A stretch of 64,000 nt of DNA from an uncultured bacterium (GTDB lineage Bacteria; Fidelibacterota; UBA2242; JAFGTP01): assembly GCA_964472715.1 (NCBI GenBank), contig CAYYMT010000001.1:13321-77320 (forward strand), read 5' to 3'. Made by a program: the position numbers and the translations under genes. The notes under the pieces are model-generated. The model searched no databases, had not been told where the DNA came from, and saw only the letters and a program-made list of their open reading frames with translations. Of the stretch, positions 2,454 through 43,848 are shown piece by piece (the first letter of the stretch is position 1; each line of letters starts with the position of its first letter).

Positions 2454-2459
2454 GAAAAT

Positions 2460-27861: not shown

Positions 27862-28040
27862 AATACCTCCATTTTTATATTAAACTTACAACACTTCAAG
27901 ATATTGTTTATTTGAAGTTTATCTAACGAATCAATATAAACGTACAATATGCCAGCCGGAATGTCAAACGGGTGTGAAATCATCTGTTTAATAAAATCAG
28001 ATAATTATTTGTAATTTTAAAAAATCTTAAATTCTCTTTT

Positions 28041-28976
28041 ATGAGGTTAAATTCATTTAAGTCTCTAATTTTTAATATAAACATGATAATTTTTGCATTA
28101 TTAATCGCAGAGATTGAAAAAGAGAAAGCACAGCCATTGGAAAAGAAAAAACCAACCAAAAGCAACTGTCCTATTGGAATTTTTGATTCCGGCCTGGGCG
28201 GCATATCAGTGGTGAATGAAGTAGCCAAATTACTTCCCGCAGAATCAATTATCTATTTTGGCGATTCTGCAAATTGTCCATATGGTGAAAAATCAATTGA
28301 TGAAGTTATCTGGCTATCGGAAAAGATCACGGAATTCCTGATTTCCCGCAATTGTAAACTCATCATCACAGCCTGCAATACCGCCACCGGCCTGGCCATA
28401 AGGCATTTAAGAAAAAAATATGACCTGCCCTTCATTGGTATCGAGCCGGCGGTAAAACCGGCGGCAAAAGCATCCAAAACCGGCCATATCGGGGTTTTAG
28501 CCACCAGTAATACCTTCCGGAGTGATCATTTCATTAATACCAGGAGTCAACATGCCAATCATGTGAAAGTTCACGGCCAACCGGGAATTGGCCTGGCAGA
28601 AGCCGTGGAAAATAATCTTATTGAAGCGGGTTCAACAGAAGCACTGCTGACAAAATATCTGCAACCAATGATCAGTGAAAATATTGACGCCCTTGTGCTG
28701 GGATGCACCCATTATCCGTTTTTAGAGAAAAAGATACGGGGGATGCTTCCCGATGGGGTCAAAATGTACAATCCCGCGCCGGCAATTGCAGCAAGGACTC
28801 AACATGTATTGGCGGCAGACAATCTCCTAACCGAGGAAAAATCGGGTCGCTATCAATTTTTCACATCCGGAGATGTGCAGGTAATGCGATCATTTATCAG
28901 GAAAAATTTCACAGGATATAAACCCGGTGAAACAAAAGTCACAAATAACCCAATTGCCCCAGCCTCCTCAACCTAA
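28041..28976 (+). CDS. murI: Glutamate racemase with an N-terminal ~40-aa hydrophobic extension
   Basis: IGIFDSGLGGISVV and ACNTATG...FIGIEP match the two catalytic Cys regions of MurI. The start is uncertain; an alternative Met lies at 28083. Confidence 0.8.
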   Translation: MRLNSFKSLIFNINMIIFALLIAEIEKEKAQPLEKKKPTKSNCPIGIFDSGLGGISVVNEVAKLLPAESIIYFGDSANCPYGEKSIDEVIWLSEKITEFLISRNCKLIITACNTATGLAIRHLRKKYDLPFIGIEPAVKPAAKASKTGHIGVLATSNTFRSDHFINTRSQHANHVKVHGQPGIGLAEAVENNLIEAGSTEALLTKYLQPMISENIDALVLGCTHYPFLEKKIRGMLPDGVKMYNPAPAIAARTQHVLAADNLLTEEKSGRYQFFTSGDVQVMRSFIRKNFTGYKPGETKVTNNPIAPASST

Positions 28977-29023
28977 ACCTCAACCTTAACCTTAACCTCA
29001 ACCTTAACCTCAACCTTAACCTC
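28964..29023. repeat. Hexanucleotide microsatellite (CCTYAA)x10 spanning both convergent stop codons
   Basis: The sequence reads cctcaa cctaaa cctcaa ccttaa ccttaa cctcaa ccttaa cctcaa ccttaa cctcaa. The murI stop TAA (28974-28976) and the minus-strand MORN-gene stop (29022-29024) both lie inside the repeat. Confidence 0.85.
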
Positions 29024-30044
29024 AACCAACCGGATTCCCATCAGGATCATAAAAAATCGGTTTCCCCTTCTTTTCACCGGAATCATAAAAATGTTTGGAC
29101 ATGATATCACCGGATTTATAATAGGACATTTGCGGGCCGTGCTTTTGATCCTTGCGGTAGCGTTTTTCAGTTTTTATGGTACCGTCTTCGTAAAACTCTT
29201 TTGCCACACCTTCTTTTTTATCCATCTCGAAGTCGACTTCAGATTTTATTGTACCGTCGGGAAAATATTCAATTGTCTTACCGTGAATGAGATTATCCCG
29301 GTATTCGGTTTCCTTAATTAAATTTTCCTTTTCATCATATTCTTTGGTTTTGCCGTATTTGCGGCCGTCTTTGAAGTTTTCCTCACGAATTTTATTACCG
29401 CTCTTACCATCATAAAAAACCGACAGTCCGTGAGGGACGCCATTGCGAAAATTTTCTTCCGATACCAGATTGCCTGTATCTTTGTCATACGTTTTTGAAG
29501 TACCGTGAAGATGGGCGCCTTTATAGCTTTTTTCCCTTTTCACACCATTAACATCGGTTTCAATATTCATTCCGTCAATATCACCTTGCCGGTAAGTGGC
29601 GGATTTTCGTATTTTACCGTTGACACCGTAGGTTTTGACTTCACCCCAGATTTTACCCTTTTTGTAGGGAGTTTCCTGAAATAATGTGCCGTCCTGCCGG
29701 TATTCACGGAGCATGAGCAGGTTTCGAATACGGAATTGTGATGAAAAGGGAGAAGTGGCCAGATACTTTTTTTCAACCCGATAGAAATTGACCTCCCCCA
29801 TCAGGCGAAATTGTTCCAGCGAAGATTTTGTGATCACAAAGGGATTGTTTTTTTTTGTCGCATTAAAGATCATTATAGTTACCAAACTCGCTATTCCCAC
29901 TAACACCAGAAAAAGTTTAAAATCATCCAGAAACAGCCAGGCCCCAAAAGCAAAAAGAACTGTAAAAATAAAAAACAGGATTGTAATTTTTTGGATCGCA
30001 TTAAATCTCTGAAAAGATTCTTTTATATTTACTTTCTTTTTCAT
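29022..30044 (-). CDS. Membrane-anchored MORN-variant / YwqK-family repeat protein
   Basis: N-terminal TM segment, then ~9 tandem ~23-aa repeats of the pattern G.....Y..G....E..Y.DG (for example GKTIEYFPDGTIKSEVDFEMDKKEG and AKEFYEDGTIKTEKRYRKDQKHG). Confidence 0.6.
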   Translation of the reverse strand: MKKKVNIKESFQRFNAIQKITILFFIFTVLFAFGAWLFLDDFKLFLVLVGIASLVTIMIFNATKKNNPFVITKSSLEQFRLMGEVNFYRVEKKYLATSPFSSQFRIRNLLMLREYRQDGTLFQETPYKKGKIWGEVKTYGVNGKIRKSATYRQGDIDGMNIETDVNGVKREKSYKGAHLHGTSKTYDKDTGNLVSEENFRNGVPHGLSVFYDGKSGNKIREENFKDGRKYGKTKEYDEKENLIKETEYRDNLIHGKTIEYFPDGTIKSEVDFEMDKKEGVAKEFYEDGTIKTEKRYRKDQKHGPQMSYYKSGDIMSKHFYDSGEKKGKPIFYDPDGNPVG

Positions 30045-30046
30045 TT

Positions 30047-31423
30047 TTACTTTTCCTTTAAATTCTGCTGAAAGGCAATCAGCAATTGCTCAGCTTCTTC
30101 ACGGCGACCTGTTTTTGCCAGTAAACCCACCAGTTTTTTCAGAGCCTCCTGATCATTATTATCCAAAGTCAGAATTAAATCAAACACAAAAATCGCTTCG
30201 CTGTATTTATGATTTTTAATCAGCAGCGTACCGACAATAGTCAGGTATTTTATATCCTTGACAGTAAAATGTGGCTTTAATTTTTCCAGATGTTGAAAAG
30301 CCTGGTCAAAAGACTGCTTATCCATATAGTAATTTAACAGTGTTTGATGAGCAAAGATATTGTTTTTGTTTAATTTCAATATTTCTTTACAAGTGGCGAC
30401 ACAATCTTTGACATCTTTGGTTTTTAAGTCAATTTTAGCGATTTCCTGCAGTATTTTTTCATCCTCAATGATAACATCTGTTGAGCCCCGTTTCCCTGAT
30501 TTTCGCAGTAATTGATTTTTATTCAGCAGATATTTCAGCCATTTTCCGGCCTCCACCCGGTTTCCCTGTTCAAGCGCGATTTTATAGAGCAGATAGTAGG
30601 CGCCGGTCTGGTCCTTTTCCAATTTTAAGGACTGGTTGATCTTTTCTACGGCGGCCTTATATTCTGCCGTTTTCATGAGTACTTCCGCATAAGTGACCAG
30701 CAGGGATGCGGTCATTTGCTTGTTCAATTGTTTCAGTTCCAGGGCTTTTTGGAAATTTTTTGCCGCGGCTTCATAGTCATTGCTCATGGCGTAATTCTGC
30801 GCCAATGTGTAGTAACCATAGGCATAATCCGGTTCTTCATGCACCATCTGCTTCAGTAATTCCAGGTTTCTGGCATTTTTTTTCTGCTGAACTGTTTCAT
30901 CCAGATTATAGCCGTAATGCAATATTTCAATATTGGTGGTAAATTCTCTGCCGCCAAGTTTTTTTAAACCGGTAGAAATCTGTTCATGAATCCGGCCCTT
31001 GAATTCAATGCCAAAGTGATTGGCAAACAACCGGTGGGCATCGGAAATATAAAAATAATCCCCTTTTTGAAAATTCTTAATATTGACCTTGTAAATTTCC
31101 GGCCGGGAGGGCTTATTATTAATAATTGATAAGAGTTCATTTTTCGAATCAGAATCCAGCCGTTCATCGGCATCCAGCCAGAGAATCCAGGTGCCGCCGG
31201 CATATTTGATGGATTCATTACGGGCGGCGGAGAAATTCCCATTCCATTTAAAATGGTGCACATCAGCGCCATATTTCTCGGCAATGTCAATTGTCTTATC
31301 TGTTGAGCCGGTGTCAATAATGATCATTTCATCCACGATACCGGCCACGCTTTCCAGACAGCCGGACAGCATTTTTTCTTCATTTTTTACAATCATGCAG
31401 AGGGATAATTTTTTATTGGTCAT
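30047..31423 (-). CDS. Family-2 glycosyltransferase with C-terminal TPR repeats
   Basis: The N-terminal GT-A fold is LSLCMIVKNEEKMLSGCLESV...IIIDTGSTDKT...WILWLDADE, with a DxD-like DADE. The C-terminal half is TPR-like helical repeats. Confidence 0.75.
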   Translation of the reverse strand: MTNKKLSLCMIVKNEEKMLSGCLESVAGIVDEMIIIDTGSTDKTIDIAEKYGADVHHFKWNGNFSAARNESIKYAGGTWILWLDADERLDSDSKNELLSIINNKPSRPEIYKVNIKNFQKGDYFYISDAHRLFANHFGIEFKGRIHEQISTGLKKLGGREFTTNIEILHYGYNLDETVQQKKNARNLELLKQMVHEEPDYAYGYYTLAQNYAMSNDYEAAAKNFQKALELKQLNKQMTASLLVTYAEVLMKTAEYKAAVEKINQSLKLEKDQTGAYYLLYKIALEQGNRVEAGKWLKYLLNKNQLLRKSGKRGSTDVIIEDEKILQEIAKIDLKTKDVKDCVATCKEILKLNKNNIFAHQTLLNYYMDKQSFDQAFQHLEKLKPHFTVKDIKYLTIVGTLLIKNHKYSEAIFVFDLILTLDNNDQEALKKLVGLLAKTGRREEAEQLLIAFQQNLKEK

Positions 31424-34400
31424 TCATGTCCTTTGTTTTGATGGTTTTCCAGCTGACTTTTCAATTGCAATGCCAGCTCATTTTGCGGGTCACCTTCCAA
31501 TATGCGGGAAATGTACTTTCCGGCCTCATCAACCCGGCCGGTTTCCAGGCTGAATTGGGCCATTCGCGATAATGCTGTTATATCGGCGGGATGCCGCTTA
31601 ATCACCTCGATAAATTCTTTGATTCCCTCCTCATATTGTTCAGTGAGGATATAGACCTCAGCCAGGTTGCGGCGCGGGTCAAGGGAATCTTCATTGTATG
31701 CCAGTGATTTTTTCAGATTATCGATGGCTTTGTCAGGTTCTCCCAATTCAAAATAAATTATCCCGATTAAATTCAGTACGAAGGAATTGTCACCATAAAT
31801 TTTTTCTAAATGCGGTAAATATTTCCGTAATGTTTTCTCATCCTGCATATTTTTAGCACACAAAACCCATCCTAATAAGCGGTTGCTCAGAGAACTTTTC
31901 TCATATTCCCATTGGTATTGTCTGGCCAGATCTGCCAGGTTATTTTGCCCGGCTGCCTCATTCACCTCATTGATAATCTTGAATATATCCTTTTGAAAAC
32001 GGATGATCGGTTTGGAGGCCAGTTTCTGAATTCGGTTTTGAGTTAGAAAAGTAACCACATTCCAATCCCAGTTCTTTTTCACGTAATCAGCAGCATATCG
32101 TCCCATTTTGGTCATAATATCCGGATTACGCCAGGCAAATTGCATTTTTTGCGCAAGATCGATTTTATCGGCTTCCCAAAACCAGGCTTTTTCCACTAGT
32201 TTCTCATTAGAAACTTTATCAAAATTTTGCACTCTCTTTTCCGCTTTGACCAAAAGTGATGTCCGCTTATTGCAAAAATCCAGGGCGGCACCGCCATTGG
32301 TAATAATTGTGGGAATGCCACAGGCCATGGCTTCCAGGATCGGCAACCCAAACCCTTCACCACGGTACGGATGAACCAGAACGTCACAGGCGGTGTAAAG
32401 CCCGACCAGTTCTTCATCACTTAGTGTGTCGTCAATATACTCAATTTCAGGATTATTTTTCCCATGAATCATGGTAGCGATTTTTTCCTTAAAATTTTGA
32501 TTTTTATAAAAAGACTCCCCGCCGAAATCCTTGATAACCAGACAAACTTCATCAGTTCGGGAAAAAGTATTAATATAAGATTCCAGCAAAATATCAATGC
32601 CCTTGCGGTAAATTGTGCCGCCAATAAACAGGAATTTGAATTTTTTACTGGTCTGGAGTTTATATGGCATTGCCTCAGGATTAAACCTCTCAGTATCCAC
32701 CCCATTGGGAACAACGAAAACTCTTTCTCTGTCGATCCCACTGTCCAGATAGACCTGTTTGACGTAGGTGGATGGTACCCACATTTCATCAACCTGATCG
32801 TTGAATGCATTTACCCATTTCTCCGGTAAAAAGCCAAATTCCCAGGGCTGAATAACCACCCAGTGTCCGGTTTTAGGCGGTTTCAGCTTGGGCGGCCACT
32901 GGTGGCGGACATGTATATCAGCGACACCAATCTGTTTATTTTCCAGTTTTTTAAGTTGCTTCCATTTACCTTCCGGCTGAAATTGATCTTTTTTATAGGG
33001 AAATAGTGACAGATTATAACCCGTTTGTGCCAGACGCAATGATTGTTCACGGTTTACCAAAGCCAGGGAATGATAGGCGAATTGATCTCCCTCCCAGACA
33101 ACTTTAATTTCTCCGGCCGGTTGATCATAAGGATTAATGGGTATATTTTTTATGGAATTGATTTTGCCTGCCAGTTCCTGATTGACCGAAGGTTTTTTTA
33201 AAATATGAGTTCCAAGGTACAGGGCTTCACCCTTCCGGTTGGTGAACCAGTAAATTTCCATCAATTTTTCCAATGCTTCCAAATCTTCAGGATGATGCAA
33301 TAAATAGATTTCCAATAAGTTTCCGGACTCTTCAAACTCTTGTTGATAGAAGAGAGAAATTCCCAATATTTTATTTAATTGATAGTCAAAGGGATCCAGT
33401 AAAAGCGCCTGGCGAAATAATTTTTCACTTTGGTCATAAATTTTATTATAGAGGCATATCTCTCCCAGTTTTTTGGCCACAAAATAATTATTGGATTTAT
33501 CCATCCGGAGATAGTGCAATGACCGCATAATGCCATTAACATCACCTTTTTCATGATAGATATTGGCCAGTTCTTTATTGGCAACAGGATGAAAAGGATT
33601 AATTTCTAATATTTTCTGAAAATGTACAGGTTTACGGGTGGCTTGCCCTTTTTTGAGCAAGGATTTTATTTCTGTTATATTTTCAGCCATATTTTTCAGG
33701 TAATTTGAATAGTTTTGCAAATCCTTTTTTCTGCGCCGCGCTTCCTCATCATCATTACTCAGTATATCGGCATAAATCCAGCGAAAAATTTGAATTTCCT
33801 CATCTTTGCCCTGTACACGGTAGTAATTTTCATTTAAAAATGTCTGAAAACGAACAAACCCCCTGGTTTCAGCAATAACGACAATATATTTCGGCGGCCG
33901 GCTTTCCAGACTTTGCATAATATTTTCTTCTTCCCTGAAGGGAGCCGGTACATATCCGGTAACACTTGGATGGGGACAAAACAGAGTGTTTGTCGGAGAG
34001 GGCCGTTCCGCCCAGAGAAAAATTTCATATTGCGCGCCCCAGACATAAATCTCATCTTCCCTTGTTGTTACTTCCTGTAAGGATTTGCCAATTTTTTCGC
34101 CCAGTGTGAAAAAGAGCCATTCATTGGGATGATTGATGTACATTAATCCGCGCTGAACCTTTTCCCGTTTAAAAATCCCCCTGATTTCCTTGCTGGTCAG
34201 CAACAGGCTCAAAATAACAATTACCAACACAATTGGAATTGATAAGATAAAAAACTTATTCCAGACAGCATAAATCCCCAGCGCCGATAAAATAGCCATA
34301 GGGGCCGCCACAGGCAGCAAATGATATGGCATGATGTGCTTGTTCAGGTAAACGGCTATTAATGCAAAAATCAGCCAACTACCAATTATAATTACAAAGG

Positions 34401-35319
34401 TATATGCAGAAAAATTTCCAAGAAATATCAGCGGAATGAATATTGTAAAAACCAGTGTCTGGCGAAAAAATTTACCATATATATCACGGGCAAATTGTTT
34501 TTGTTGTGACTGAAACCCCTGATTTTCCTTATCAATATAAACACGACGTTCCTTATCAACCTTTATTTCCCGATCTTTTCTGCCTGCGAAATTTTTCCGC
34601 CCATAAAAAATATTGTCTAAATGCATTAAAAAGGCTTTCGGTGTGAGGGAAAATATATCGAGAAAATGAGGGAACATTCTTTTTTTGTAAAAATAGAATC
34701 CCGTTAAAAACAACCCCGGTATAGCCCCCGCAAAAAACAGCAAATAATTATTCCAGGTAAACTCAATCAGAGCAATCGCGATAAGTACCGGCGGAAAGGT
34801 GTTAATATATGCCGATTGTTTGAAAAATAACGCCATAAAACTCATCAGACCGGCCAGAACGAAAACCCAGTTGCCATTCACAGGGCTGATACAAACCAGG
34901 GCAATGGCTAAAGCAGTGAAAGCGCTTTGTTCAATTTCATCACTGGATTGCACCCACACAAAGGTGGGCAGGGAAACCAGAATACCATAGAGCAAGGTCG
35001 CCACAAAGGCAAAATTAACCGGTAAAAACGCAGATGAAATAATAAAAACGGCAATTTGTGTTATCAACATGAAAAAAATTGCGCTATAGCGAAACAGAGA
35101 CCTTGAAACAGCAAAAAAATTTAATAAAAAGGCATACAGCAGCCAGCGCCCTGGCGGATGATTTTCCTGTGTATCTCTCACCGGCATTCTTTGTTTACGT
35201 AGCCAAAAAAGTCCGTGGTATCCATAAATACCAAAATCAGCATCCAGGGGCACTTGCAGATAAGGTATCTTTATCAAAATTGTAAAAATACATATCAGTG
35301 ATAAATATAAAATAACCAT
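31420..35319 (-). CDS. Giant multi-domain glycosylation protein: polytopic GT-C-like membrane region (PMT/ArnT-like), TPR block, GT4 glycosyltransferase domain, and C-terminal TPR block
   Basis: 1299 aa. At least 10 TM helices at the N-terminus, with a first-loop LDADFGIYGYHG acidic motif. TPR repeats around aa 560-700. GT4 motifs KFKFLFIGGTIYRKGID and HPYRGEGFGLPILEAMACGIPTI (EX7E). TPR repeats again at aa ~1130-1290. Confidence 0.7.
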   Translation of the reverse strand: MVILYLSLICIFTILIKIPYLQVPLDADFGIYGYHGLFWLRKQRMPVRDTQENHPPGRWLLYAFLLNFFAVSRSLFRYSAIFFMLITQIAVFIISSAFLPVNFAFVATLLYGILVSLPTFVWVQSSDEIEQSAFTALAIALVCISPVNGNWVFVLAGLMSFMALFFKQSAYINTFPPVLIAIALIEFTWNNYLLFFAGAIPGLFLTGFYFYKKRMFPHFLDIFSLTPKAFLMHLDNIFYGRKNFAGRKDREIKVDKERRVYIDKENQGFQSQQKQFARDIYGKFFRQTLVFTIFIPLIFLGNFSAYTFVIIIGSWLIFALIAVYLNKHIMPYHLLPVAAPMAILSALGIYAVWNKFFILSIPIVLVIVILSLLLTSKEIRGIFKREKVQRGLMYINHPNEWLFFTLGEKIGKSLQEVTTREDEIYVWGAQYEIFLWAERPSPTNTLFCPHPSVTGYVPAPFREEENIMQSLESRPPKYIVVIAETRGFVRFQTFLNENYYRVQGKDEEIQIFRWIYADILSNDDEEARRRKKDLQNYSNYLKNMAENITEIKSLLKKGQATRKPVHFQKILEINPFHPVANKELANIYHEKGDVNGIMRSLHYLRMDKSNNYFVAKKLGEICLYNKIYDQSEKLFRQALLLDPFDYQLNKILGISLFYQQEFEESGNLLEIYLLHHPEDLEALEKLMEIYWFTNRKGEALYLGTHILKKPSVNQELAGKINSIKNIPINPYDQPAGEIKVVWEGDQFAYHSLALVNREQSLRLAQTGYNLSLFPYKKDQFQPEGKWKQLKKLENKQIGVADIHVRHQWPPKLKPPKTGHWVVIQPWEFGFLPEKWVNAFNDQVDEMWVPSTYVKQVYLDSGIDRERVFVVPNGVDTERFNPEAMPYKLQTSKKFKFLFIGGTIYRKGIDILLESYINTFSRTDEVCLVIKDFGGESFYKNQNFKEKIATMIHGKNNPEIEYIDDTLSDEELVGLYTACDVLVHPYRGEGFGLPILEAMACGIPTIITNGGAALDFCNKRTSLLVKAEKRVQNFDKVSNEKLVEKAWFWEADKIDLAQKMQFAWRNPDIMTKMGRYAADYVKKNWDWNVVTFLTQNRIQKLASKPIIRFQKDIFKIINEVNEAAGQNNLADLARQYQWEYEKSSLSNRLLGWVLCAKNMQDEKTLRKYLPHLEKIYGDNSFVLNLIGIIYFELGEPDKAIDNLKKSLAYNEDSLDPRRNLAEVYILTEQYEEGIKEFIEVIKRHPADITALSRMAQFSLETGRVDEAGKYISRILEGDPQNELALQLKSQLENHQNKGHE

Positions 35320-35579
35320 AACTTGCTCCCTTGAATTCTGTTTTTTATTGTTTTATCCATAATCAGCCAATATTCCAGTTACAGATTCAGCCTTCTTGCT
35401 GAAAACTTACTTTTTTAAACCCTTAGTTCGAACCATATTGGGACCGGTTTCCGGATAAAACGGAACTGCAAAAATCAATATTTTCTTTCGTTTTGTTTTC
35501 ATATCAGATTTCACTGCTGTAACAACACATACTAATTAGTGTGTACTCTAAACATAAATTATACATTATAAAGCATGTA

Positions 35580-35831
35580 TTAAGCCGACTTGTAAGTATC
35601 ATAAATTCCTTTCCAGCCGGCGGGTGTCAAAAATTTGAAATGGTAATCATCGTCTGAACAATTGGCTTTAATCGTTATTGAACCGGGGCTGTTTTGGGTT
35701 AACGGATATGTTTCAATTTCCGGAATCAATCCTGAATTATTAAATTCTGAATAGAATTCAGGGGGATGAAAAGGATCATCAGGATATTGACATTGTGGCA
35801 ACTTTGCTATAAATACATCAGGTTTTGTCAT
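35580..35831 (-). CDS. Hypothetical small protein (83 aa), probably translationally coupled to the upstream adenylating enzyme
   Basis: The ORF overlaps the preceding gene's stop by 14 nt. No recognisable motif. Pro, Asp and aromatic-rich. Confidence 0.3.
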   Translation of the reverse strand: MTKPDVFIAKLPQCQYPDDPFHPPEFYSEFNNSGLIPEIETYPLTQNSPGSITIKANCSDDDYHFKFLTPAGWKGIYDTYKSA

Positions 35832-37158
35832 TTTTCACCTTTGAAAATACAAATTGGTATTTCCCCGATTTAAGTTTGGGTAGGGACTCGATAATGTTGA
35901 ATTTTATTTCACATGGCTCTCCCATAATATAATTAATTTTATTTTTTACTTTATCTAAATTATTATCACTTACTTCACTTTTTTGGGCTTCCAGATTAAT
36001 GGTGAATTTTTGATAATCCTCCTGAATCAGTTGAAATTTTTTCACAGACCTCATGAAATAGAACAAATGGGTAAACAGTTCACCATGAATAATATTGCCG
36101 TCCTTGCGAATAATGTGGGCGTTTTCACGGCCGTTTAATCCGGATAAGGAGCGAACGGCAGTACCGTCTATAGTATGACTTTCGCCAATATCGCCGGTAT
36201 CGAATTTTATCAGCGGCATGGCATAATTATTCAGCTGCGTTATAATGACATTGCCAACGCCCGCGTTCCTGATATATTGCCGGGAATTTTTGTTAAATAA
36301 CTCCAGATAAACGGAATGGCTGAATATATCGATATCCTCAGTTCCGATTCCAATAATACCAACTTCCTTTGAACCATATTGGTTAGCAATAATGGATTCC
36401 GGAAAAGCCGCCTTGATTTCCTCTTTTAACTCCGAATACATGGTTCCGGCGGTACAAACAATAACGTGGGGCTGAAAAACCTTCAGATTGGGATTACGAT
36501 TTTTATATTTGGCGATTTCAAAGATCGAATCCACATAAGTCCAGATCATTTTGGGGCGCACCGCATTGATTACCTCAATATAGTTTTCAATCAGGCGATG
36601 ATTGAGTTTGAAACTATTAAGCAAAATCCGGTTAAAGAAGTAATTTTTTAATTTACCGGAAAAGGATTTCTTTTCGTTGAAAATATCCTTTTCCGACCCC
36701 CATAGTTTGATCTCCTGCTCGCCGGGATGTTTATCATATAATTCGCCAAAATACAAGGTGTCCGCTACCATGCGGTTATAATAGTCGCTATCTTGTATAA
36801 AAACCACCGGCTCACCCGTTGATCCGCAGGAATTATTTTTGTAAATTTTTCGGCGGTGATTGTCTTTTGAGCATATTTGCTCATAGTTTTCCCGAATAAT
36901 TTTCTTAGTCAGAAGGGGAATTTGATTAAATTTCTCCCAATTGATTTTATCGTCTTTAATCAGGCCGATTTCATTAAAAAGTCTGTGATAATAAGTAGTA
37001 TTATGATAAGCATGAAATATTAATTTTCGCAACCGGAATAATTGATAATTATAAACATTTTCCCTATTTACATAGAGTTTTCTGGTCTGACGTAAATATT
37101 TAAGCACATCGGGTTTATATAATCTCAGTAAAATTGGCGCTATTTTGGTCTTAATCAT
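35818..37158 (-). CDS. CapK / phenylacetate-CoA ligase (PaaK)-like adenylate-forming enzyme
   Basis: NSCGSTGEPVVFIQD resembles the PaaK/F390-synthetase P-loop (SSGTTGKP). The size and the C-terminal lysine region fit. The start is taken at MIKTK (37158) to avoid overlapping the asnB-like gene; the ORF track extends to 37227. Confidence 0.6.
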   Translation of the reverse strand: MIKTKIAPILLRLYKPDVLKYLRQTRKLYVNRENVYNYQLFRLRKLIFHAYHNTTYYHRLFNEIGLIKDDKINWEKFNQIPLLTKKIIRENYEQICSKDNHRRKIYKNNSCGSTGEPVVFIQDSDYYNRMVADTLYFGELYDKHPGEQEIKLWGSEKDIFNEKKSFSGKLKNYFFNRILLNSFKLNHRLIENYIEVINAVRPKMIWTYVDSIFEIAKYKNRNPNLKVFQPHVIVCTAGTMYSELKEEIKAAFPESIIANQYGSKEVGIIGIGTEDIDIFSHSVYLELFNKNSRQYIRNAGVGNVIITQLNNYAMPLIKFDTGDIGESHTIDGTAVRSLSGLNGRENAHIIRKDGNIIHGELFTHLFYFMRSVKKFQLIQEDYQKFTINLEAQKSEVSDNNLDKVKNKINYIMGEPCEIKFNIIESLPKLKSGKYQFVFSKVKNDKT

Positions 37159-39031
37159 AATATACATCCAGCCATTTTTGAAAGACATAAAGCGTCCACA
37201 ATAATTTCCGGTTATCCTTTTTTTCATTTAGATGATCCTGCATGAGACTGTCGATATAATCGTAATTAAAAATATTATAATGCTGAATATTTTGCCTGGA
37301 CAGCGTTTGCAGAAATTCTGATTTCAAATCTGATTTTATCCACTTGGTAACGGGAATGCCAAATCCTTTTTTGGGACGATTGATAATTTTTTCCGGAAGA
37401 TATTTTTTGGCCAGGCGTTTCAGTAAATATTTTGACGTCAGGCCGCGATATTTTAGCCGGGCCGGCACTTTCGCCATGAACTCCACCACTTCCTTGTCCA
37501 AAAACGGAACCCTAACCTCCAGGGAATTCATCATACTGGCGCGGTCAACCTTGACCAGCATATTATCCTGCAGATAAAAGCGCATGTCCAGCCACAAAGA
37601 CCGCTCCCAGTTATTTTCTGTCTGGCACCGTTTCATATGCTGCCTGATGATTTCTAATTTTTGAACCTTCTTACCCAGCACATTCAATAATTCAGGTGAT
37701 AGCAGATGTTTTTTTTGGTTAGTATCAAAGGAGCCGAGCCATATCTGATGGCGAATATCAGGATCATACTTCAGGCCTGCAACAAATTTCTTGGCTTTAA
37801 AATCAAAACTTATATTCTCGTCTGATGTTGGTAACAAATTCACCACCGGATTAAGCAGATAATGTGAAAATCGCGGCATAAAACCACCGATTTTCCGGGC
37901 TAAATAAGTTGGATATCCGGCAAATATTTCGTCACCCCCATCACCGCTCAGAGCAACAGTGACATTTTCCCTGGTGAGTTGCGACAGCAGATAAGTGGGC
38001 AAAATGGAATCGTCAGCAAAGGGTTCGTCCATATTGCGGACAATTTCCGGCAGGATGTCCATCATTTCACCAGGTGTAAAAATTTTTTCAAAGTGTTCCG
38101 TATCCAGATAGCCCGACATAAACCGGGCGTAACTGGTTTCATCAAAAGAATCTTCGGCAAATCCAATACTGAAGGTTTTCAGGTTATTTTTCATGCTTCT
38201 TGATAAGTAGGCCGCAATCAGGCTGGAATCAAGGCCACCGCTGAGGAAAGACCCCAACGGCACATCACTGACTTTGCGGCGCTCCACGGCCTTCCTGATC
38301 AGCCAATCCAGTTCCTGAACATAAAAATCAACATCACGGGAGCTATACTTTGGCTGAAATTCTAAAAAATAATATTGATGCCTGGTTAATTTATTCCTTG
38401 ATAATTCCAGATAATGGCCCTGTTCAAGCTTATGAATATTATTAAAGATCGATAAGGGAGCCGGTACCGATTCGAATGTCAGGTAATAATTCAGCGCTTC
38501 ATAGTTGAGTTCTTTTTTGAAAGCAGGAAAAGTGAGAATGGATTTTAGTTCCGAAGCAAAAATGAAATCGCCATCTTTATGGTAATAATATAACGGCTTG
38601 ATGCCAAAGCGGTCCCGGGCCAGGAAAAGTGAGTCCCGGTTGAGATCAAGAATAGCAAAAGCAAACATGCCGTTCAGTTTATCCAGGCAGTTCACCCCTT
38701 CTTCTTCATAAAGATGCAAAATGACTTCTGTATCGGATTGGGTTTTAAATTGATGACCCGCCGCCTGTAACCTTTTTCTCAGTTCCCGGAAATTATAGAT
38801 TTCGCCGTTAAAAACAATCGCCAGTGATCTGTCCTCATTAAAAATCGGCTGGTCTCCGGTGTTGATATCAATCACCCGCAACCTGCGCATGCCAATGGCA
38901 AAATCATCGATCACAAAATATCCGCTGTCATCCGGGCCGCGATAAGCGATTTTATCGCACATTTTTTCCAGTATATTGGATTTTTCCTGCTGTGAAAATT
39001 TTTTTGATATGAATCCGGCTATCCCACACAT
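37151..39031 (-). CDS. asnB: Asparagine synthetase (glutamine-hydrolysing) family amidotransferase (AsnB/PseA-like)
   Basis: N-terminal MCGIAG Ntn-Cys. PP-loop SGGLDSS in the synthetase domain. 626 aa. Confidence 0.85.
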   Translation of the reverse strand: MCGIAGFISKKFSQQEKSNILEKMCDKIAYRGPDDSGYFVIDDFAIGMRRLRVIDINTGDQPIFNEDRSLAIVFNGEIYNFRELRKRLQAAGHQFKTQSDTEVILHLYEEEGVNCLDKLNGMFAFAILDLNRDSLFLARDRFGIKPLYYYHKDGDFIFASELKSILTFPAFKKELNYEALNYYLTFESVPAPLSIFNNIHKLEQGHYLELSRNKLTRHQYYFLEFQPKYSSRDVDFYVQELDWLIRKAVERRKVSDVPLGSFLSGGLDSSLIAAYLSRSMKNNLKTFSIGFAEDSFDETSYARFMSGYLDTEHFEKIFTPGEMMDILPEIVRNMDEPFADDSILPTYLLSQLTRENVTVALSGDGGDEIFAGYPTYLARKIGGFMPRFSHYLLNPVVNLLPTSDENISFDFKAKKFVAGLKYDPDIRHQIWLGSFDTNQKKHLLSPELLNVLGKKVQKLEIIRQHMKRCQTENNWERSLWLDMRFYLQDNMLVKVDRASMMNSLEVRVPFLDKEVVEFMAKVPARLKYRGLTSKYLLKRLAKKYLPEKIINRPKKGFGIPVTKWIKSDLKSEFLQTLSRQNIQHYNIFNYDYIDSLMQDHLNEKKDNRKLLWTLYVFQKWLDVYYD

Positions 39032-40137
39032 TGTTTCAGCATCTCCTCATATTTTGGATATAAATTGTCCCAGTTATTGTTCCGGACAATAAATTTTCTC
39101 ATTTGTTGACCCGACTGATTGATTAGAGCGGGATTCTCAAGCAGGTATTGCAATTTTTCTTTCCATGCCATAGGATTTTGATAATCACTGACCACCCAAT
39201 TACTTATGATCGTCTCATCCTCCCACTGAAGATGAGCATTGGCAGAGCTTAAAAGCGCGCATTGATTAGCCACGGCTTCCAGAGCGGAATTTGACATCCC
39301 TTCATCCAGCGAGGGTAAGACAAAAATGTGAGCGTCCCGGTATTGTCGCACCAATGCTTCCCGGTTTTTCCAGGTATCAAATATCACTTTTTCCCCAAGA
39401 CCTTTTTCCCTGACCAGGGATTGTAAGTTCGTTTTGCAAGGCCCGTCGCCAATTAGTTTAAATTGGAAATCCTTTTGCAATAATGCCAATGCTTTTATGA
39501 AAACCCCGAGATTTTTTTGTTCCGATAAGCGGCCGGTGTAAAGGAATTTAATTTTACACTGCTGCAAATTGTCACGCGCCGGCATCTCCCGAATCGTAAT
39601 TCCGTTGGGTAATATTTTGATTTTTCCGGAATTAATACCGGTTTGCCCGGCTAAATATGCCAGCCGCCGGGAATTGACATGCACAACAGCGGCATGATTA
39701 CAGACCATCTTAATAAAAGGCCGGGCGAAAAACTGTAACCGATTATACCGGGCGCCTAATTGAAAACCGGGCACATCACCACCGCGGAGGGAGACAATAT
39801 AAGGAACTTTAAATAAAAATTTATACCACATGGCAAGAAAGCCGCCGGGAATAGTGAAAAAGGCCAGGATAATATCCGGCGAAAAAGACCGGTTGACAGG
39901 TCTTAATTTCAAAAATCCCTTAACAATAAATAACAAAAATTCATTGACAGAGCCTTTTGAGGCCGCTTTTCGTCCTGATTGAACAGTCGTCATTTCTTCA
40001 TTTTTCTGATCAACAGGCCCGGTCAGTAAATGAACCTTGTGGTTATGTTGTTTTAATCGCTTGTATAATTCCTTTGTAATAGTTGCAGCGCCGCCGCCAT
40101 TGGGTGGAAACTCGTGATTGATCAATAATATTTTCAT
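39019..40137 (-). CDS. Family-1 (GT4) glycosyltransferase
   Basis: MKILLINHEFPPNGGGAATITKELYKRL is the GT4 N-domain. LPSLDEGMSNSALEAVA is an EX7E-type motif. Confidence 0.75.
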   Translation of the reverse strand: MKILLINHEFPPNGGGAATITKELYKRLKQHNHKVHLLTGPVDQKNEEMTTVQSGRKAASKGSVNEFLLFIVKGFLKLRPVNRSFSPDIILAFFTIPGGFLAMWYKFLFKVPYIVSLRGGDVPGFQLGARYNRLQFFARPFIKMVCNHAAVVHVNSRRLAYLAGQTGINSGKIKILPNGITIREMPARDNLQQCKIKFLYTGRLSEQKNLGVFIKALALLQKDFQFKLIGDGPCKTNLQSLVREKGLGEKVIFDTWKNREALVRQYRDAHIFVLPSLDEGMSNSALEAVANQCALLSSANAHLQWEDETIISNWVVSDYQNPMAWKEKLQYLLENPALINQSGQQMRKFIVRNNNWDNLYPKYEEMLKQCVG

Positions 40138-40167
40138 TCATATGTCCCGGTTATATCTTACTTAAAA

Positions 40168-41241
40168 TCAATAATAAATGGTATTATTGTTCATTAAAAA
40201 ATTATAAGCCTCAGAAACGTCATTGTTTTCCGGAAGACTTTTCTGAAAAATGCCATAGACCTTTGCAGCCTGTGTCTTCATATCCAGTCTAAACAAAGTA
40301 TTTATAAACAATCTGACAATTTCAGGGTTCAATGGATTTTTTTCATACAGCGGCTTTAGCTTGTTCATTACTTGCATTAGGTTGTTATTTTGCAAATCAT
40401 GAATTACCAGTTCATATTCATCAGTGGAAGAACTTCTGTTTCCAGGAGAAACAATGGGGTTATGGAATAAATATTCCCAACCATTTAGTTCGAGAAACAA
40501 TTTAGACTCAGAATAATTATTAAGTAAATCCTGAAGATTATCTGGATTTGTCTTAATCAGGTCCGTTTTCAGATTAAAATTATAATCAATTGCAAAAAAA
40601 TCATAAATTCGTTTCAAAACGCCACTGTTTATTTTACCGCTATCCAGAGAGTTAGGATCGAAGAAATCCTCATAATAAATTTCCAGATAATTATCTTTAA
40701 ATAAATTTTTAAATCTGTTTCTATTTTCTGTAATACTCCTTTTAATAATAGCAAGATCATTAAGTAAACGTTGGTCAATTGGGAGGGTTATTTTATGAGG
40801 TGCATATTTTTCCGTGCTGTGGGATTTCCGGCCTAATTGTTCTTTCCTGATATTTAAAATAGTTGAAATCAACGTTTTGAGACTATTTTTTCTGATCAGG
40901 TGAATTACTTTATTAAATTTACGATTCAGAATGTGCATTTGATCAGGAATGATCGCCAACTGGTCATATTTGATATTCATACCAACAATTTTACAGTTCT
41001 TTTTCTTTTTAAATGTTGTATCAAAAAATTCACTTAACACCTGTTTCTGGCCGGGCGGCGTAATGTTGACGGCTGATTTCTTGACTTTTTTTCTCCAGAA
41101 ATGGAAATAATTATCTTTTTCCATAAAATCCTGCCACAGAAGTAATTCCGGATAAACATGAATTTCAGGATGGCTGGTAAGCAGTGAGGAAAGAAATCCT
41201 GTACCGGATCGCTGAGTGGCAAGTAATATAAATTTTTCCAT
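40168..41241 (-). CDS. Sulfotransferase (Stf0-like PAPS-dependent sulfotransferase domain) with a C-terminal helical extension
   Basis: MEKFILLATQRSGTGFLSSLL resembles the 5'-phosphosulfate-binding loop of Stf0-type sulfotransferases (ATQRSGS). 357 aa. Confidence 0.6.
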   Translation of the reverse strand: MEKFILLATQRSGTGFLSSLLTSHPEIHVYPELLLWQDFMEKDNYFHFWRKKVKKSAVNITPPGQKQVLSEFFDTTFKKKKNCKIVGMNIKYDQLAIIPDQMHILNRKFNKVIHLIRKNSLKTLISTILNIRKEQLGRKSHSTEKYAPHKITLPIDQRLLNDLAIIKRSITENRNRFKNLFKDNYLEIYYEDFFDPNSLDSGKINSGVLKRIYDFFAIDYNFNLKTDLIKTNPDNLQDLLNNYSESKLFLELNGWEYLFHNPIVSPGNRSSSTDEYELVIHDLQNNNLMQVMNKLKPLYEKNPLNPEIVRLFINTLFRLDMKTQAAKVYGIFQKSLPENNDVSEAYNFLMNNNTIYY

Positions 41242-41256
41242 ATTTATTTATTTTTT

Positions 41257-43143
41257 TTATTTTATTATTTGTTCAACCAAATATTCATCACTTTTTTTCG
41301 CCTCAAAAAATCCGCGGGTAATGATTTCACTCAGCAGGCCGACGATAATAAATTGTAATCCCCCGAGCATTGTAAAGATCAGAAATATTAAAAAGGTCTG
41401 TCCGGTTATGCCAATCCCCAACAGCCGGTGTGAGAAAAAAAGGAGCAGGGACAATGTAAACCCGCTGAAGATCGTCATCAGGGCAAATTTTCCAAAAAAC
41501 AACAGCGGATGGGTACGAAAACCGGTATAAAAGCGTAAAGTGATCAGGTCGAGAATCACTCGCCAGACCCGCTCCAGTCCGTATTTTGCTTCCCCGAATT
41601 TCCGGCTGTGATGGGTGACCGGAATTTCCGCTACTTTGATGCCCAGCCAGGCGGCATAGGCGGGAATGAAACGATGCATTTCACCGTAGAGTTTAATGCG
41701 CTTGACAATCGCTTTTTTATAAGCTTTCAGGGAGCAGCCAAAATCATGAATTCGAATGCCTGTGCCTTCAATCAGTTTATTAATGATCCTGTTGGCTATT
41801 TTTGAAGGTATTTTTCGTGTCAATTTCTTGTCCTGCCGGTTTTTGCGCCAGCCGCTGACCAGATCATAGCCTTCACTCATTTTAGCCAGCAATTTGGGAA
41901 TATCCACGGGATCATTTTGCAAGTCCGCATCCATAGTGATCACGATATCGCCGGAAGCATACTTAAATCCGGCAGCAAAGGCCGCGGTCTGTCCGTAATT
42001 GCGGCGAAACTTCAGGGTAACCACATTGTCATTCTGCCGGGACAAACTTTCCAGTATTGTCAGGGAATTATCCGTGCTGCCGTCATCAATAAATATAATT
42101 TCATAGTTTTTTCCCAGTTCCTGCAAAACCGATTTGATTTTATCGAACAGGATGATCAGGGATTCCTCTTCATTGTAAACCGGTATAACGATGGATAATT
42201 CAGTGCTCTTTTGCTTTTCCTGACTATCAAAAGTATCAATAATTTTCATAGGCTGAATTTTTCCGATCACTGCCTGCCGGGACTTTGGGCCGGCCTGTTT
42301 GGTTAAAATCGGAAAAAATTCTTTCCACACATCGATCGAATGGGATACTTTCCCTTCTAAAGTGTAGGTTAGGGCCAGGGTCGCGTGGATGTCATCGGCA
42401 TCGGGTTTGAGTTTCAGACAGTTTTGAAAATCTTCCCGGGCTTTTTGCACTTCATTGAGATTCAAATAGCAAAAACCACGGTGATACAGCGCGTCGACTG
42501 CATTGCCGGAAAGATTAAGAATTTGTGTAAAAGTTTGAATGGCTGTTTCATAATCATTGTCTTGTATGTCAATGATTCCTTTTCGAAAGAGCAGATCCCT
42601 GTTTTTGGTATTTTTGTTAAAATACCGGTGTATCAAAGTTTTGGCTTTATCCAGTTCATTGGATTCGGAATAGAATTCCAGCAGATAGACCAGGGATTCA
42701 TTGTTGTAATTTACAATTTCAGCCGCTTGCAGATAGAAGGATTCAGCCTTGGCGCGGTTATTCTGATCACTGTAAATTTCTGCCAGGTCCCGGCAAATAT
42801 CATATTTTCCCGGCGCCAGGCTGTAGGCTTTTTCCATAGCTGTCAGGCCGTCATCAATTTTTCCCCGGAGATAGAGTGTTTTTCCCATTCCGTAAAGGGC
42901 CTGAAAATGGTTGTCGTCTATATTCATAGCATTGTGAAAATATTTTTCCGCTTCCCGCATCTGACCGATAGCCAGATGCATTTCCCCGATCAATAGATTA
43001 ATATGCAGATCAGCACTATTATGAATATAAACAGACTCCAGCAGGTCGAGAGCGGCCACATACTCCCGGTTGCGGATCTTTTCCTCAATTAAATTTAATT
43101 TTGAATTCAGGGAATTCTGGGGTTTCATAAAATCCTCCGGCAT
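41257..43143 (-). CDS. TPR-repeat protein fused to a polyprenyl-phosphate-type GT2 glycosyltransferase (DPM1/ArnC/GtrB-like) with C-terminal TM helices
   Basis: The N-terminal ~300 aa are TPR repeats. Then SIVIPVYNEEESLIILF...IIFIDDGSTDNS...DADLQN follow, which is the GT2 DXD pattern. The C-terminal hydrophobic helices end in GLLSEIITRG. A GGAGG RBS sits 7 nt before the ATG, and the gene starts only 9 nt after csrA. Confidence 0.75.
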   Translation of the reverse strand: MPEDFMKPQNSLNSKLNLIEEKIRNREYVAALDLLESVYIHNSADLHINLLIGEMHLAIGQMREAEKYFHNAMNIDDNHFQALYGMGKTLYLRGKIDDGLTAMEKAYSLAPGKYDICRDLAEIYSDQNNRAKAESFYLQAAEIVNYNNESLVYLLEFYSESNELDKAKTLIHRYFNKNTKNRDLLFRKGIIDIQDNDYETAIQTFTQILNLSGNAVDALYHRGFCYLNLNEVQKAREDFQNCLKLKPDADDIHATLALTYTLEGKVSHSIDVWKEFFPILTKQAGPKSRQAVIGKIQPMKIIDTFDSQEKQKSTELSIVIPVYNEEESLIILFDKIKSVLQELGKNYEIIFIDDGSTDNSLTILESLSRQNDNVVTLKFRRNYGQTAAFAAGFKYASGDIVITMDADLQNDPVDIPKLLAKMSEGYDLVSGWRKNRQDKKLTRKIPSKIANRIINKLIEGTGIRIHDFGCSLKAYKKAIVKRIKLYGEMHRFIPAYAAWLGIKVAEIPVTHHSRKFGEAKYGLERVWRVILDLITLRFYTGFRTHPLLFFGKFALMTIFSGFTLSLLLFFSHRLLGIGITGQTFLIFLIFTMLGGLQFIIVGLLSEIITRGFFEAKKSDEYLVEQIIK

Positions 43144-43152: not shown

Positions 43153-43383
43153 CTATTTTTTTTTGCTGAAGGATTTTAGTATATCAGCATTCAAGGTGCT
43201 GTTAAAAACGGAAGCGCGATTTTTTGCCTTGATTCGTTCGTATACCTCTTCACGATGCACCGGAACCTCGCGGGGCGCGTTAATTCCGATTTTGGTGTGG
43301 CCGTTACTGCATTCCAAAACTCTGATGACGATGTTGCTTCCAATTCTGATACTCTCTTCGGTTTTTCTGGTTAAAACAAGCAT
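43153..43383 (-). CDS. csrA: Carbon storage regulator CsrA
   Basis: MLVLTRKTEESIRIGSNIVIRVLECSNGHTKIGINAPREVPVHREEVYERIK matches CsrA almost along its full length, including the GxxG RNA-binding region. Confidence 0.9.
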   Translation of the reverse strand: MLVLTRKTEESIRIGSNIVIRVLECSNGHTKIGINAPREVPVHREEVYERIKAKNRASVFNSTLNADILKSFSKKK

Positions 43384-43413: not shown

Positions 43414-43848
43414 TTAAAATTTGTCTAATTTGTGTTCCTCGGACAATTTCGGATCATCCAATATGATCTGTTTGCCATTGCCTGTAAAGGTATTCAATAT
43501 CAATGGCGCTTTGGTATTGGCCACAAAATGTTTTGTTTCTTCGTCAATCCGCAGGATTACAAAAAGGCGTAAATACTTTTGATCCTCAATTTCAAGATTA
43601 CGCATTTCATTTTTTGGAAATGAAATATCGTCAAAAATATTCAGAAGGCTTCCATCCAGAACGATCATGGATATATCCGGCAATTCTGTGGATTGAAACA
43701 ATTTGAAGGGTGGAAAGTCTTCCAGGTTTTTGAATTCAAATTCTGACAAATGTTCAAATCCCGGCAAGCCATATTCAAAATTGAATATTGTCGCACTTCC
43801 GGTTTTTGCTTCTTTAGTCATTACATTGCTCATCTTCATATCTTTCAT
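43414..43848 (-). CDS. fliW: Flagellar assembly factor FliW
   Basis: IFNFEYGLPGFEHLSEFEF...FKLFQSTE...MIVLD follows the FliW pattern. It sits immediately upstream of csrA in the conserved fliW-csrA pair. The true start may be an internal Met near 43821. Confidence 0.75.
   Translation of the reverse strand: MKDMKMSNVMTKEAKTGSATIFNFEYGLPGFEHLSEFEFKNLEDFPPFKLFQSTELPDISMIVLDGSLLNIFDDISFPKNEMRNLEIEDQKYLRLFVILRIDEETKHFVANTKAPLILNTFTGNGKQIILDDPKLSEEHKLDKF

Follow-up and report, generated by a model that had tools for sequence, protein, structure and literature searches.

To our knowledge, nearly all examples of flagellin glycosylation come from cultured Proteobacteria, Campylobacterota, and Firmicutes, whose transferases for this modification are soluble and cytoplasmic. 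In flagellin islands such as those of Caulobacter FlmG and C. difficile type B, glycosyltransferase genes are clustered with flagellar genes and gene content is hypervariable. Analysis of a 64-kb stretch of DNA from an uncultured bacterium of the Fidelibacterota (positions 13,321 to 77,320 of the forward strand of contig CAYYMT010000001.1, assembly GCA_964472715.1; hereafter the window) uncovered nine co-directional genes 3′ of csrA, in a block ending at 29022, that extend a flagellar operon with predicted glycosyltransferases, an amidotransferase, a sulfotransferase, and an adenylate-forming enzyme. The island is conserved within its lineage and fits neither the conventional type of O-antigen or capsule locus nor the standard type of flagellin island. 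We give about an even chance to its being a flagellum-coupled protein glycosylation island of flagellated Fidelibacterota that builds an amidated, probably sulfated glycan, with flagellin, as we infer, the likely substrate.

The closest described systems each share part of this layout. Tetratricopeptide repeats (TPR) are attached to the transferase in the Caulobacter flagellin transferase FlmG, as they are in the window enzymes, and C. difficile type B flagellin offers a precedent for a sulfonated, amide-linked glycan, whose amide-linked and sulfur-containing decorations would fit the chemistry predicted here (PMC7591256 and PMC5207245, respectively). Unlike those flagellin islands, the window has no flagellin gene adjacent to the block and no nonulosonate pathway, and the block is joined to fliW-csrA rather than to fliC. 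The ArnC/ArnT, GtrB/GtrC, and streptococcal GtrB-PgtC2/Pgf systems follow the same pairing logic of an undecaprenyl-phosphate sugar synthase with a GT-C enzyme, and the streptococcal system glycosylates proteins (PMC11092751). The window differs from them in the 300-aa TPR domain on its GT2, the lack of a flippase gene, the flagellar-operon setting, and a GT-C domain that is fused to a GT4 (a GT2 in sister proteins) and to TPRs and from which the cytoplasmic-loop charges are missing. Polysaccharide loci of Acidobacteriota and exopolysaccharide (EPS) clusters of the PEP-CTERM/XrtA type contain the same pair of a GT2 and an AsnB-type amidotransferase at 42–50% identity per protein, whereas the window has a TPR domain on its GT2, no priming transferase, Wzy, or exporter, and an attachment to flagellar genes. 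Finally, the Bacillus flgM-flgN-flgK-flgL-fliW-csrA-hag operon has the same flgN-flgK-flgL-fliW-csrA order, with the FliW-partnered CsrA last; flagellin follows csrA there, while in the window, in a diderm, the glycosylation island takes that place and flagellin is presumably encoded elsewhere in the genome. The description of the block in the initial annotation as sitting where flagellin normally lies is therefore true for the Bacillus-type order only. We know of no described flagellin island with ArnC/GtrB-type synthase and GT-C domains (no dedicated literature search was made on this point). Searches on csrA/fliW with flagellin glycosylation, and on Marinimicrobia with flagella and glycosylation, turned up no published description of this layout, in agreement with the earlier view that it matches no standard one.

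The open reading frames (ORFs), coordinates, and gene order of the initial annotation are confirmed, and profile searches with Pfam and NCBIfam reproduced all its domain calls; the island and flagellar genes all lie on the minus strand. The flagellar genes form a co-directional array that starts at flgB (58462) and runs flgB-flgC, fliF-fliG-fliH-fliI-fliJ, a 190-aa protein, and flgF-flgG-flgA-flgH-flgI-flgJ-flgN-flgK-flgL-fliW-csrA. Its tail, from 46627 to 43153, comprises flgN (46118–46627), flgK (44747–46105; NCBIfam TIGR02492, 293.6 vs. a cutoff of 170.75), flgL (43853–44734; TIGR02550, 187.7 vs. 127.2), fliW (43414–43848; Pfam FliW, 80.4 vs. 25, below the NCBIfam equivalog cutoffs), and csrA (43153–43383; Pfam CsrA, 85.6 vs. 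27; TIGR00202, 79.4 vs. 70.1), with Pfam matches for flgN, flgK, and flgL as well. The adjacent fliW and csrA constitute a FliW-CsrA checkpoint module that is terminal among the late flagellar genes. The L-ring and P-ring genes (flgH, flgI) mark the organism as a diderm with external flagella. A 293-aa protein with Flagellin_N/C domains was considered as a short flagellin and ruled out, as NCBIfam identifies it as FlgL.

From flgB to the last island gene at 29022, the minus-strand array is unbroken over ~29 kb. Intergenic spacing within the block is −13 to +30 nt except for one gap of 260 nt (35320–35579), which is also the largest of the whole array, and terminator-like sites in the array are no more frequent than in shuffled sequence, with no convincing one on the minus strand. 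Judged by this layout, the island is most likely expressed as a 3′ extension of the late flagellar operon flgN-flgK-flgL-fliW-csrA, so that the proposed joining of the block to flgKL-fliW-csrA holds physically and probably transcriptionally. The first island gene, a TPR-GT2 called at 41257–43143, had been placed 9 nt after csrA behind a GGAGG ribosome binding site. That GGAGG (43138–43134) is present, but it lies inside the ORF called from ATG 43143 and precedes ATG 43128 by 5 nt. Because a 95%-identical orthologue is 623 aa long and also agrees with the shorter form, the real start is probably 43128 (gene 41257–43128) and the csrA gap 24 nt. No CsrA-binding signature was recognized 5′ of this gene: the leaders of the window and of two relatives (L001, L081) have just the GGAGGA Shine-Dalgarno sequence in common, and their small hairpins differ and contain no GGA in the loop, so we make no claim of CsrA control. 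At the other end of the array, a sigma-28-like motif, TAAAGAAATTTATTCAATAACCGATA (58710–58735, minus strand), lies ~250 nt 5′ of flgB, the array's first gene; the chance expectation for this pattern is 0.94 per window, and its position alone is suggestive. The 190-aa protein between fliJ and flgF (51221–51793, minus strand) has a weak MgtE_N match and no NCBIfam match, and it is kept at the same position in L081.

The junction between csrA and the island is conserved. The window's closest proteins come from metagenome-assembled genomes (MAGs) of Fidelibacterota (Marinimicrobia), and csrA is followed by the TPR-GT2 in every viewable Fidelibacterota locus (six), at amino acid identities to the window protein of 95% (L081/L082), 68% (L001), 59% (L083), 53% (L084), and 50% (L087). 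In all of them the genes flgF through csrA precede the TPR-GT2, and AsnB follows it directly or one to two genes further on, usually accompanied by a sulfotransferase and at least one GT4. The genes 5′ of flgF have been replaced in three of these loci (L083, L084, L087), where sensor kinases stand in place of the fliJ side, so that the csrA-island junction survives rearrangement of the flagellar block. On the far flank, the island end (a giant protein, a GT2-TPR, and a MORN-repeat protein) and the subsequent rnhB-GGT-GH97-response regulator genes are shared with another relative, L088. There the MORN gene adjoins rnhB; in the window, an Asp/Glu racemase (plus strand) and an SDR (minus strand) are inserted between the two at 27091–28976.

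Between both anchors, gene content is variable and the distal genes differ among relatives. A sulfotransferase is present in the window and missing from the L088 and L001 islands, and the extras found in relatives include radical SAM proteins, methyltransferases, an MptE-like/DUF115 protein, glf, an epimerase, GT9, and additional GT2, GT4, and GT-C genes. The MptE-like/DUF115 protein of the L084 island scores 47.5 bits against a cutoff of 34.6; this domain is present in Maf flagellin transferases. Such sharp differences among close relatives are typical of glycosylation islands and are counted in favor of one here. They could also be expected, together with a G+C content of 0.36–0.37 at 34–37 kb and 39–42 kb compared with ~0.40–0.44 nearby, if a horizontally acquired O-antigen or capsule cassette had been inserted by chance or recently 3′ of csrA, with no flagellar link. 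We consider such an insertion very improbable, since the junction persists even where the proteins share only 50% identity and the far flank is syntenic with L088. Furthermore, the window contains no tRNAs or Rfam matches, no integrase domain was found in the ORFs scanned, and Wzx, Wzy, ABC-transporter, and priming transferase domains are absent from the block. With synteny conserved on both flanks, horizontal transfer was rejected as the explanation for the island.

Among the island enzymes, the soluble 458-aa GT2-TPR (30047–31423) comprises an N-terminal GT-A domain of ~190 aa (Pfam Glycos_transf_2, aa 7–120) followed by TPRs (~aa 190–450). In the PDB, this protein is matched best by the GmaR glycosyltransferase domain (22ao, 9e-34; aa 6–194, 38% identity over 187 residues), in an alignment spanning GmaR residues 11–199, and the next matches are SunS and ThuS. 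The initial annotation had pointed to TPR-bearing transferases in the block; they are present, and this one has GmaR as its closest relative of solved structure. The GmaR protein of Listeria monocytogenes, which acts both as a flagellin O-GlcNAc transferase and as an anti-repressor of MogR, likewise carries its transferase domain ahead of its TPRs; it transfers GlcNAc to flagellin, and its TPR has been proposed to recognise flagellin (PMC9638930). GmaR is longer, at 637 aa (PMC9638930); its linker and anti-repressor domains have no counterpart in the window protein, which belongs to a diderm of a different phylum from which no MogR system is known (no search aimed at MogR was made). From this alignment, the GT2-TPR is predicted to be a GmaR/SunS-type protein glycosyltransferase with putative activity on flagellin. 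L088 has an orthologue, and three further Fidelibacterota encode one on the contigs that carry their TPR-GT2. In Ignavibacteria, a homologue is found 722 nt past flgC-fliE-fliF-fliG-fliH-fliI-fliJ, from which a single short gene on the opposite strand separates it.

Profile searches of the nine block proteins revealed no Bac_transf, WecA, Wzx, Wzy, Wza, Wzc, ABC-transporter, ligase, or priming transferase domains, and the only multi-transmembrane elements are a GT-C domain, the hairpin of the TPR-GT2, and the MORN protein's anchor. Without Wzx, Wzy, or a priming transferase, the block does not match a conventional O-antigen or capsule locus, the reading that the initial annotation had named as a potential refutation of its own. 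The conserved csrA junction, the GmaR-type GT2-TPR, the fliJ neighborhood of the Ignavibacteria homologue, and the Maf-type domain of L084 are all counted toward a flagellar role, as are the FlmG-like combination of TPR and transferase and the lack of a priming transferase, flippase, polymerase, or exporter.

Other enzymes point toward lipid-linked sugars. The TPR-GT2, the most conserved island gene, encodes ~300 aa of N-terminal TPRs, an ArnC/GtrB-type domain with the motifs DDGSTD and MDADLQND, and a C-terminal hairpin of two transmembrane segments (aa 550–572 and 581–609). It matches NCBIfam PRK10714 (ArnC) at 250.5 bits over model positions 4–312 of 316, relative to an equivalog cutoff of 529, and its PDB matches are ArnC (9hwj, 3e-66) and GtrB (5ekp, 1e-40); an exact-sequence look-up returned no record. 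Rather than a classical flagellin transferase, it is by homology a member of the polyprenyl-phosphate glycosyltransferase family, of the ArnC/GtrB type that synthesizes undecaprenyl-phosphate sugars, and not an ArnC orthologue. Its partner (37151–39031) is a full glutamine-dependent AsnB-type amidotransferase with a GATase domain (Pfam GATase_7) and an Asn_synthase domain (1e-99). The nearest NCBIfam to this protein is TIGR03108, the XrtA/PEP-CTERM EPS amidotransferase (586 bits vs. a cutoff of 816.9); the scanned ORFs of the window include no exosortase domain.

To place this pair, loci with an ArnC-like GT2 and enough downstream sequence to score were surveyed, with the help of a metagenome scan for the TPR-GT2. 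The scan patterns fell in the catalytic domain: generic ArnC-like GT2s dominated the hits, and no full-length relatives were returned. In this census, an AsnB homologue lies on the same strand within 3 kb downstream of the ArnC-like GT2 at 41 of 109 loci, including all seven with a TPR fusion and 34 of the 102 others, and the AsnB-paired loci without TPR are mostly from Acidobacteriota. On one Pyrinomonadaceae chromosome (L069, 9956–19187), the pair is found among DUF354, Bac_transf, and Wzy_C genes in a conventional polysaccharide locus, which has around the pair the priming, flippase or ABC-transporter, polymerase or ligase, and export components that the window block lacks. TPR-fused cores also occur in two genomes outside the Fidelibacterota: one of 3.9 Mb encodes the TPR-GT2, AsnB, sulfotransferase-TPR, and GT4 beside two-component regulators (L085, 10001–15904), and the other a bare TPR-GT2 and AsnB pair among housekeeping genes (L086, 10001–13560). 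Judged by this distribution, the GT2-AsnB pairing predates its link to flagella and does not depend on it. AsnB had been presented as a hallmark of flagellin islands; it is part of this block, but the pairing also occurs widely outside flagellar contexts.

These observations bear on the main alternative, which we regard as possible but doubtful and in which the island is a cell-envelope glycoconjugate pathway merely co-transcribed with, or located beside, the flagellar operon, and flagellin is not its substrate. The undecaprenyl-phosphate sugar, perhaps amidated, sulfated, or lipid-extended as in archaeal AglJ-type pathways, would then be flipped, and GT-C enzymes would attach it in the periplasm to LPS or lipid A, to some other glycan, or to periplasmic or outer-membrane proteins rich in Ser/Thr. 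The end-to-end alignment of the TPR-GT2 catalytic half with ArnC/GtrB, transmembrane hairpin included, fits this pathway, as do the spread of the GT2-AsnB pair through non-flagellar loci including one of the Wzy type, the PEP-CTERM EPS amidotransferase as closest family to AsnB, and the established protein O-glycosylation by GtrB plus GT-C in streptococci (PMC11092751). An envelope pathway accounts less readily for a csrA junction kept in all six Fidelibacterota contexts despite rearrangement nearby, for a block without flippase, ligase, polymerase, or exporter, or for the GmaR-type soluble transferase and the Maf-type domain in a sister island.

The GT-C enzyme itself speaks on both sides. 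It is the N-terminal domain of a giant 1299-aa protein (31420–35319) that consists of GT-C (aa 1–520, nt 33760–35319), TPRs (~560–700), a GT4 domain (~800–1090) with an intact EX7E motif (EGFGLPILE), and further TPRs (1150–1299). An exhaustive HMMER search recovered 490 homologues of aa 1–520, compared with one by word-indexed search. The domain itself has no Pfam match; 25 of 32 sampled homologues match PMT_2, so that its membership is transitive. D28, in the first loop after the first transmembrane segment, is invariant in 100 aligned homologues, and G30, P56, E128, and K167 are nearly so. An AF2 model built with 100 homologues (pLDDT 91.8, pTM 0.92) retrieved ArnT with Foldseek (5f15, E 5e-7, TM 0.55), followed by STT3, PglB, AglB, DPY19, and PMT. 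By this model, the giant protein begins with a true GT-C fold, and the earlier description of a GT-C-like membrane domain was correct. A giant orthologue, P0131, occupies the same position in the L088 island. Two other GT-C-like membrane proteins in related islands, of 542 aa (L088) and 626 aa (L092), have no Pfam match and share the giant's first-loop Asp motif and C-terminal domain, as seen by eye in one alignment. Both the GT-C fold of the giant protein and these additional proteins are what an envelope pathway would contain.

The closest GT-C relatives, however, are all fusions to Leloir transferases, and they lack the usual charges in their cytoplasmic loops, which an envelope pathway does not explain. 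The GT-C-TPR-GT4-TPR arrangement is found in the window, P0131, and P0137, and GT-C-GT2-TPR in P0132, P0133, P0134, P0136, and P0130 (L090). Leloir transferases require cytoplasmic nucleotide sugars, and in the fused proteins the GT-C C-terminal domain runs into the GT4 or GT2 with no further transmembrane segment. In the 90 stand-alone relatives, the N-terminal tail is rich in Lys/Arg, and the short loops presumed to be cytoplasmic have mean Lys/Arg counts of 1.0, 1.3, 3.1, and 2.6 at window positions 99–100, 147–152, 186–190, and 352–357, compared with 0, 0, 0.1, and 0.3 in seven fused proteins. Summed over the canonical cytoplasmic loops, the fused proteins have 0–2 Lys/Arg vs. a stand-alone mean of 6.9 (Mann-Whitney p = 2e-5, for seven fused sequences that are related to each other and so not an independent sample). 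In addition, the N-terminal tail of the fused proteins is a single residue, their canonical “periplasmic” loop 212–287 is doubled in length with ~14 Lys/Arg, and the segment after the last transmembrane segment is strongly basic (6 Lys/Arg in 15 residues). Because a positive-inside count over all loops is poorly calibrated for GT-C enzymes, the stand-alone proteins themselves showing a Lys/Arg excess on the canonical periplasmic side once the long first loop is included in the count, the orientation argument uses the contrast between fused and stand-alone proteins in the short loops and not an absolute prediction.

The charge-stripped loops hint at an inverted, cytoplasm-facing GT-C, while a partial rearrangement or an inactive periplasmic Leloir domain are also possible. 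In its full form, which we hold to be rather unlikely, the proposal is that the GT-C is inserted upside down, with active site and C-terminal domain in the cytoplasm, and would use the undecaprenyl-phosphate sugar of the neighboring TPR-GT2, straight from the inner leaflet and without a flippase, on pre-export flagellin held by the TPRs. The Asp of the catalytic loop is kept, and domain searches found no flippase gene in the island. A lipid-linked sugar would in that case be usable on the cytoplasmic face, which would answer the chief objection to a flagellin target.

The remaining enzymes suggest what the glycan may carry. The sulfotransferase (40168–41241) has a marginal match to Pfam Sulfotransfer_3 (30.3 vs. 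27), and its C-terminal 90 aa match TPR profiles, as two repeats. Its PAPS-binding motifs QRSGT (aa 10–14) and IHLIRxNxLKTxIS (aa 113–126) are invariant across five orthologues; of those found in L081, L083, L087, and L085, the one in L087 has an unflagged Sulfotransfer_3 match. Searched against the PDB, the single sequence gave no match and the profile matched the C-terminal TPR only. As it has no transmembrane segment or signal peptide, the protein is predicted to be cytoplasmic. A soluble GT4 of the GT-B type (39019–40137; Pfam Glycos_transf_1 and Glyco_transf_4) has orthologues in all related islands. The PaaK/CapK-type adenylate-forming enzyme (35818–37227) has NCBIfam PaaK-family matches that are all below their cutoffs, and it matches phenylacetate-CoA ligases in the PDB (2.6e-12); its orthologues bear a Pfam CapK_C match. 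To judge from L081, translation of its gene probably begins at a later ATG, with an overlap of a few nucleotides with the AsnB stop. The last island gene encodes a MORN-repeat membrane protein (29022–30044; Pfam MORN_2, 2e-15) with two N-terminal transmembrane segments and a 57%-identical orthologue at the same position in L088. The Lys-rich flanks of this hairpin place the repeats, by prediction, in the cytoplasm. The sulfated, amidated chemistry proposed in the initial annotation is thus plausible; the nonulosonate component that it had suggested has no pathway genes in the block.

On the interpretation of a flagellum-coupled island, the soluble catalytic domains (GT2-TPR, GT4, TPR-sulfotransferase, AsnB, and the PaaK/CapK ligase) would act at the inner membrane, on its cytoplasmic side, as would the catalytic half of the TPR-GT2 (ArnC type) and the MORN protein's anchor. 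The TPR modules would dock the enzymes on the protein substrate or on one another, the substrate most likely being flagellin glycosylated before export. The GmaR-type enzyme or the GT4s may place an O-linked glycan on it and elongate this glycan, AsnB together with the adenylating enzyme would modify a sugar carboxylate, giving an amide or an amino-acid or acyl amide, and the sulfotransferase would add sulfate from PAPS. The ArnC-type enzyme would load a sugar on undecaprenyl phosphate for the giant protein's GT-C domain, which would pass it on to a further acceptor.

Several observations weigh against a flagellin-directed island. ArnC-type and GT-C enzymes normally act in the periplasm, where exported flagellin never goes. 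No NeuB/PseI, aminotransferase, or dehydratase domains, and no dedicated sugar-nucleotide genes of the pse, leg, neu, or vioA/B type, were found in the block by profile searches. The ArnC-type GT2 and AsnB, which are the island's best-conserved genes, also pair up in non-flagellar loci such as the polysaccharide locus L069, the TPR-fused cores of L085 and L086 have no flagellar neighbors, and a Kapabacteria homologue of the GT2-TPR does not adjoin flagellar structural genes. The csrA-GT2 gap of L083, at 301 nt, has room for a separate promoter. The search for a flagellin gene that had been suggested was run on the window and the fetched loci, and it found none (tblastn with the N- and C-terminal regions of B. 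subtilis Hag and E. coli FliC, queries that matched FlgL alone). Finally, the phylum's only cultured member is non-motile (PMC11652737). Together with the evidence in its favor, these points leave the idea of a new flagellin glycan pathway partly supported.

TPR modules on four different enzymes suggest recognition of a protein substrate, which would equally suit a general protein O-glycosylation system that counts flagellar proteins as one substrate class and whose operon placement serves for motile-state expression only. Transferases of both the cytoplasmic and the GT-C type would be in keeping with such a system, as would the TPR-fused core without flagellar neighbors in two other genomes. 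It is nevertheless improbable in our view, as the block has no oligosaccharyltransferase of the PglL, PglB, or O-antigen-ligase type and no priming phosphoglycosyltransferase, and nothing at the locus points to other substrates; sequence alone cannot separate this system from a flagellum-coupled one.

If the island does modify flagellin, it would extend flagellin glycosylation to an abundant, essentially uncultured phylum of the ocean and subsurface, tie glycosylation genes physically to the FliW-CsrA checkpoint, and add TPR-fused undecaprenyl-phosphate sugar synthases, Leloir-fused GT-Cs, and TPR-sulfotransferases as new classes of island enzymes. The Leloir-fused, charge-inverted GT-C could be new in kind. 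Were it inverted, it would be without precedent as a GT-C that faces the cytoplasm and as a lipid-linked route to flagellin glycosylation in bacteria, and it would break the working rule by which GT-C enzymes function on the far side of the membrane only. An envelope pathway would instead mean surface glycans co-regulated with motility. Either way, the conserved four-gene core of TPR-GT2, AsnB, sulfotransferase, and GT4 is a defined module found in several phyla.

The window's copy of the island also bears traces of gene loss. The small ORF of the initial annotation (83 aa, 35580–35831) proved to be the pseudogene remnant of a DUF362 gene: in tblastn, its aa 5–41 match L001 positions 16187–16297 and its aa 35–76 match 17477–17620, and the same pattern appears against L088 (tblastn/tblastx). 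The ORF is an in-frame fusion of the N- and C-terminal ends of this gene, which is intact and encodes ~485 aa in L001 and L088. The 260-nt gap noted earlier is indeed the sole large one in the block, and it is likewise a deletion scar, with a remnant of 31 codons of a GT4 N-terminus (MKTKRKKILIFAVPFYPETG..., 35407–35502) inside it that matches L088 positions 6095–6145, in the GT4 gene after DUF362 (tblastx chained hit, E 8.5e-19). Relative to L088, the window is missing ~4.9 kb, comprising the DUF362 interior, the GT4, glf (UDP-galactopyranose mutase), and the 542-aa stand-alone GT-C-like gene. By these comparisons, the window's island is a reduced, partly degraded version.

Elsewhere in the window, a possible separate module for lipids or glycolipids at 289–4922 (minus strand) includes genes for a GT4, for a PP-loop ATPase whose ThiI-, QueC-, and LarE-like matches are weak, and for an 820-aa protein in which AMP-binding, carrier-protein, and acyltransferase domains are fused. 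At 5084–9518, a 453-aa multihaem cytochrome (c554/MtrC-like) is encoded beside a 392-aa protein and divergent ResB/CcsA genes for cytochrome c maturation. The stretch at 11750–12975, between uvrC and a DoxX gene, is poor in ORFs and AT-rich (G+C ~0.32) and contains no ORF of at least 60 aa, Rfam family, or tRNA. Closer to the island, at 25931–26923 (minus strand), a 330-aa protein fuses RNase HII to a UPF0102/YraN (NERD-like nuclease) domain, and the same fusion is found in L088.

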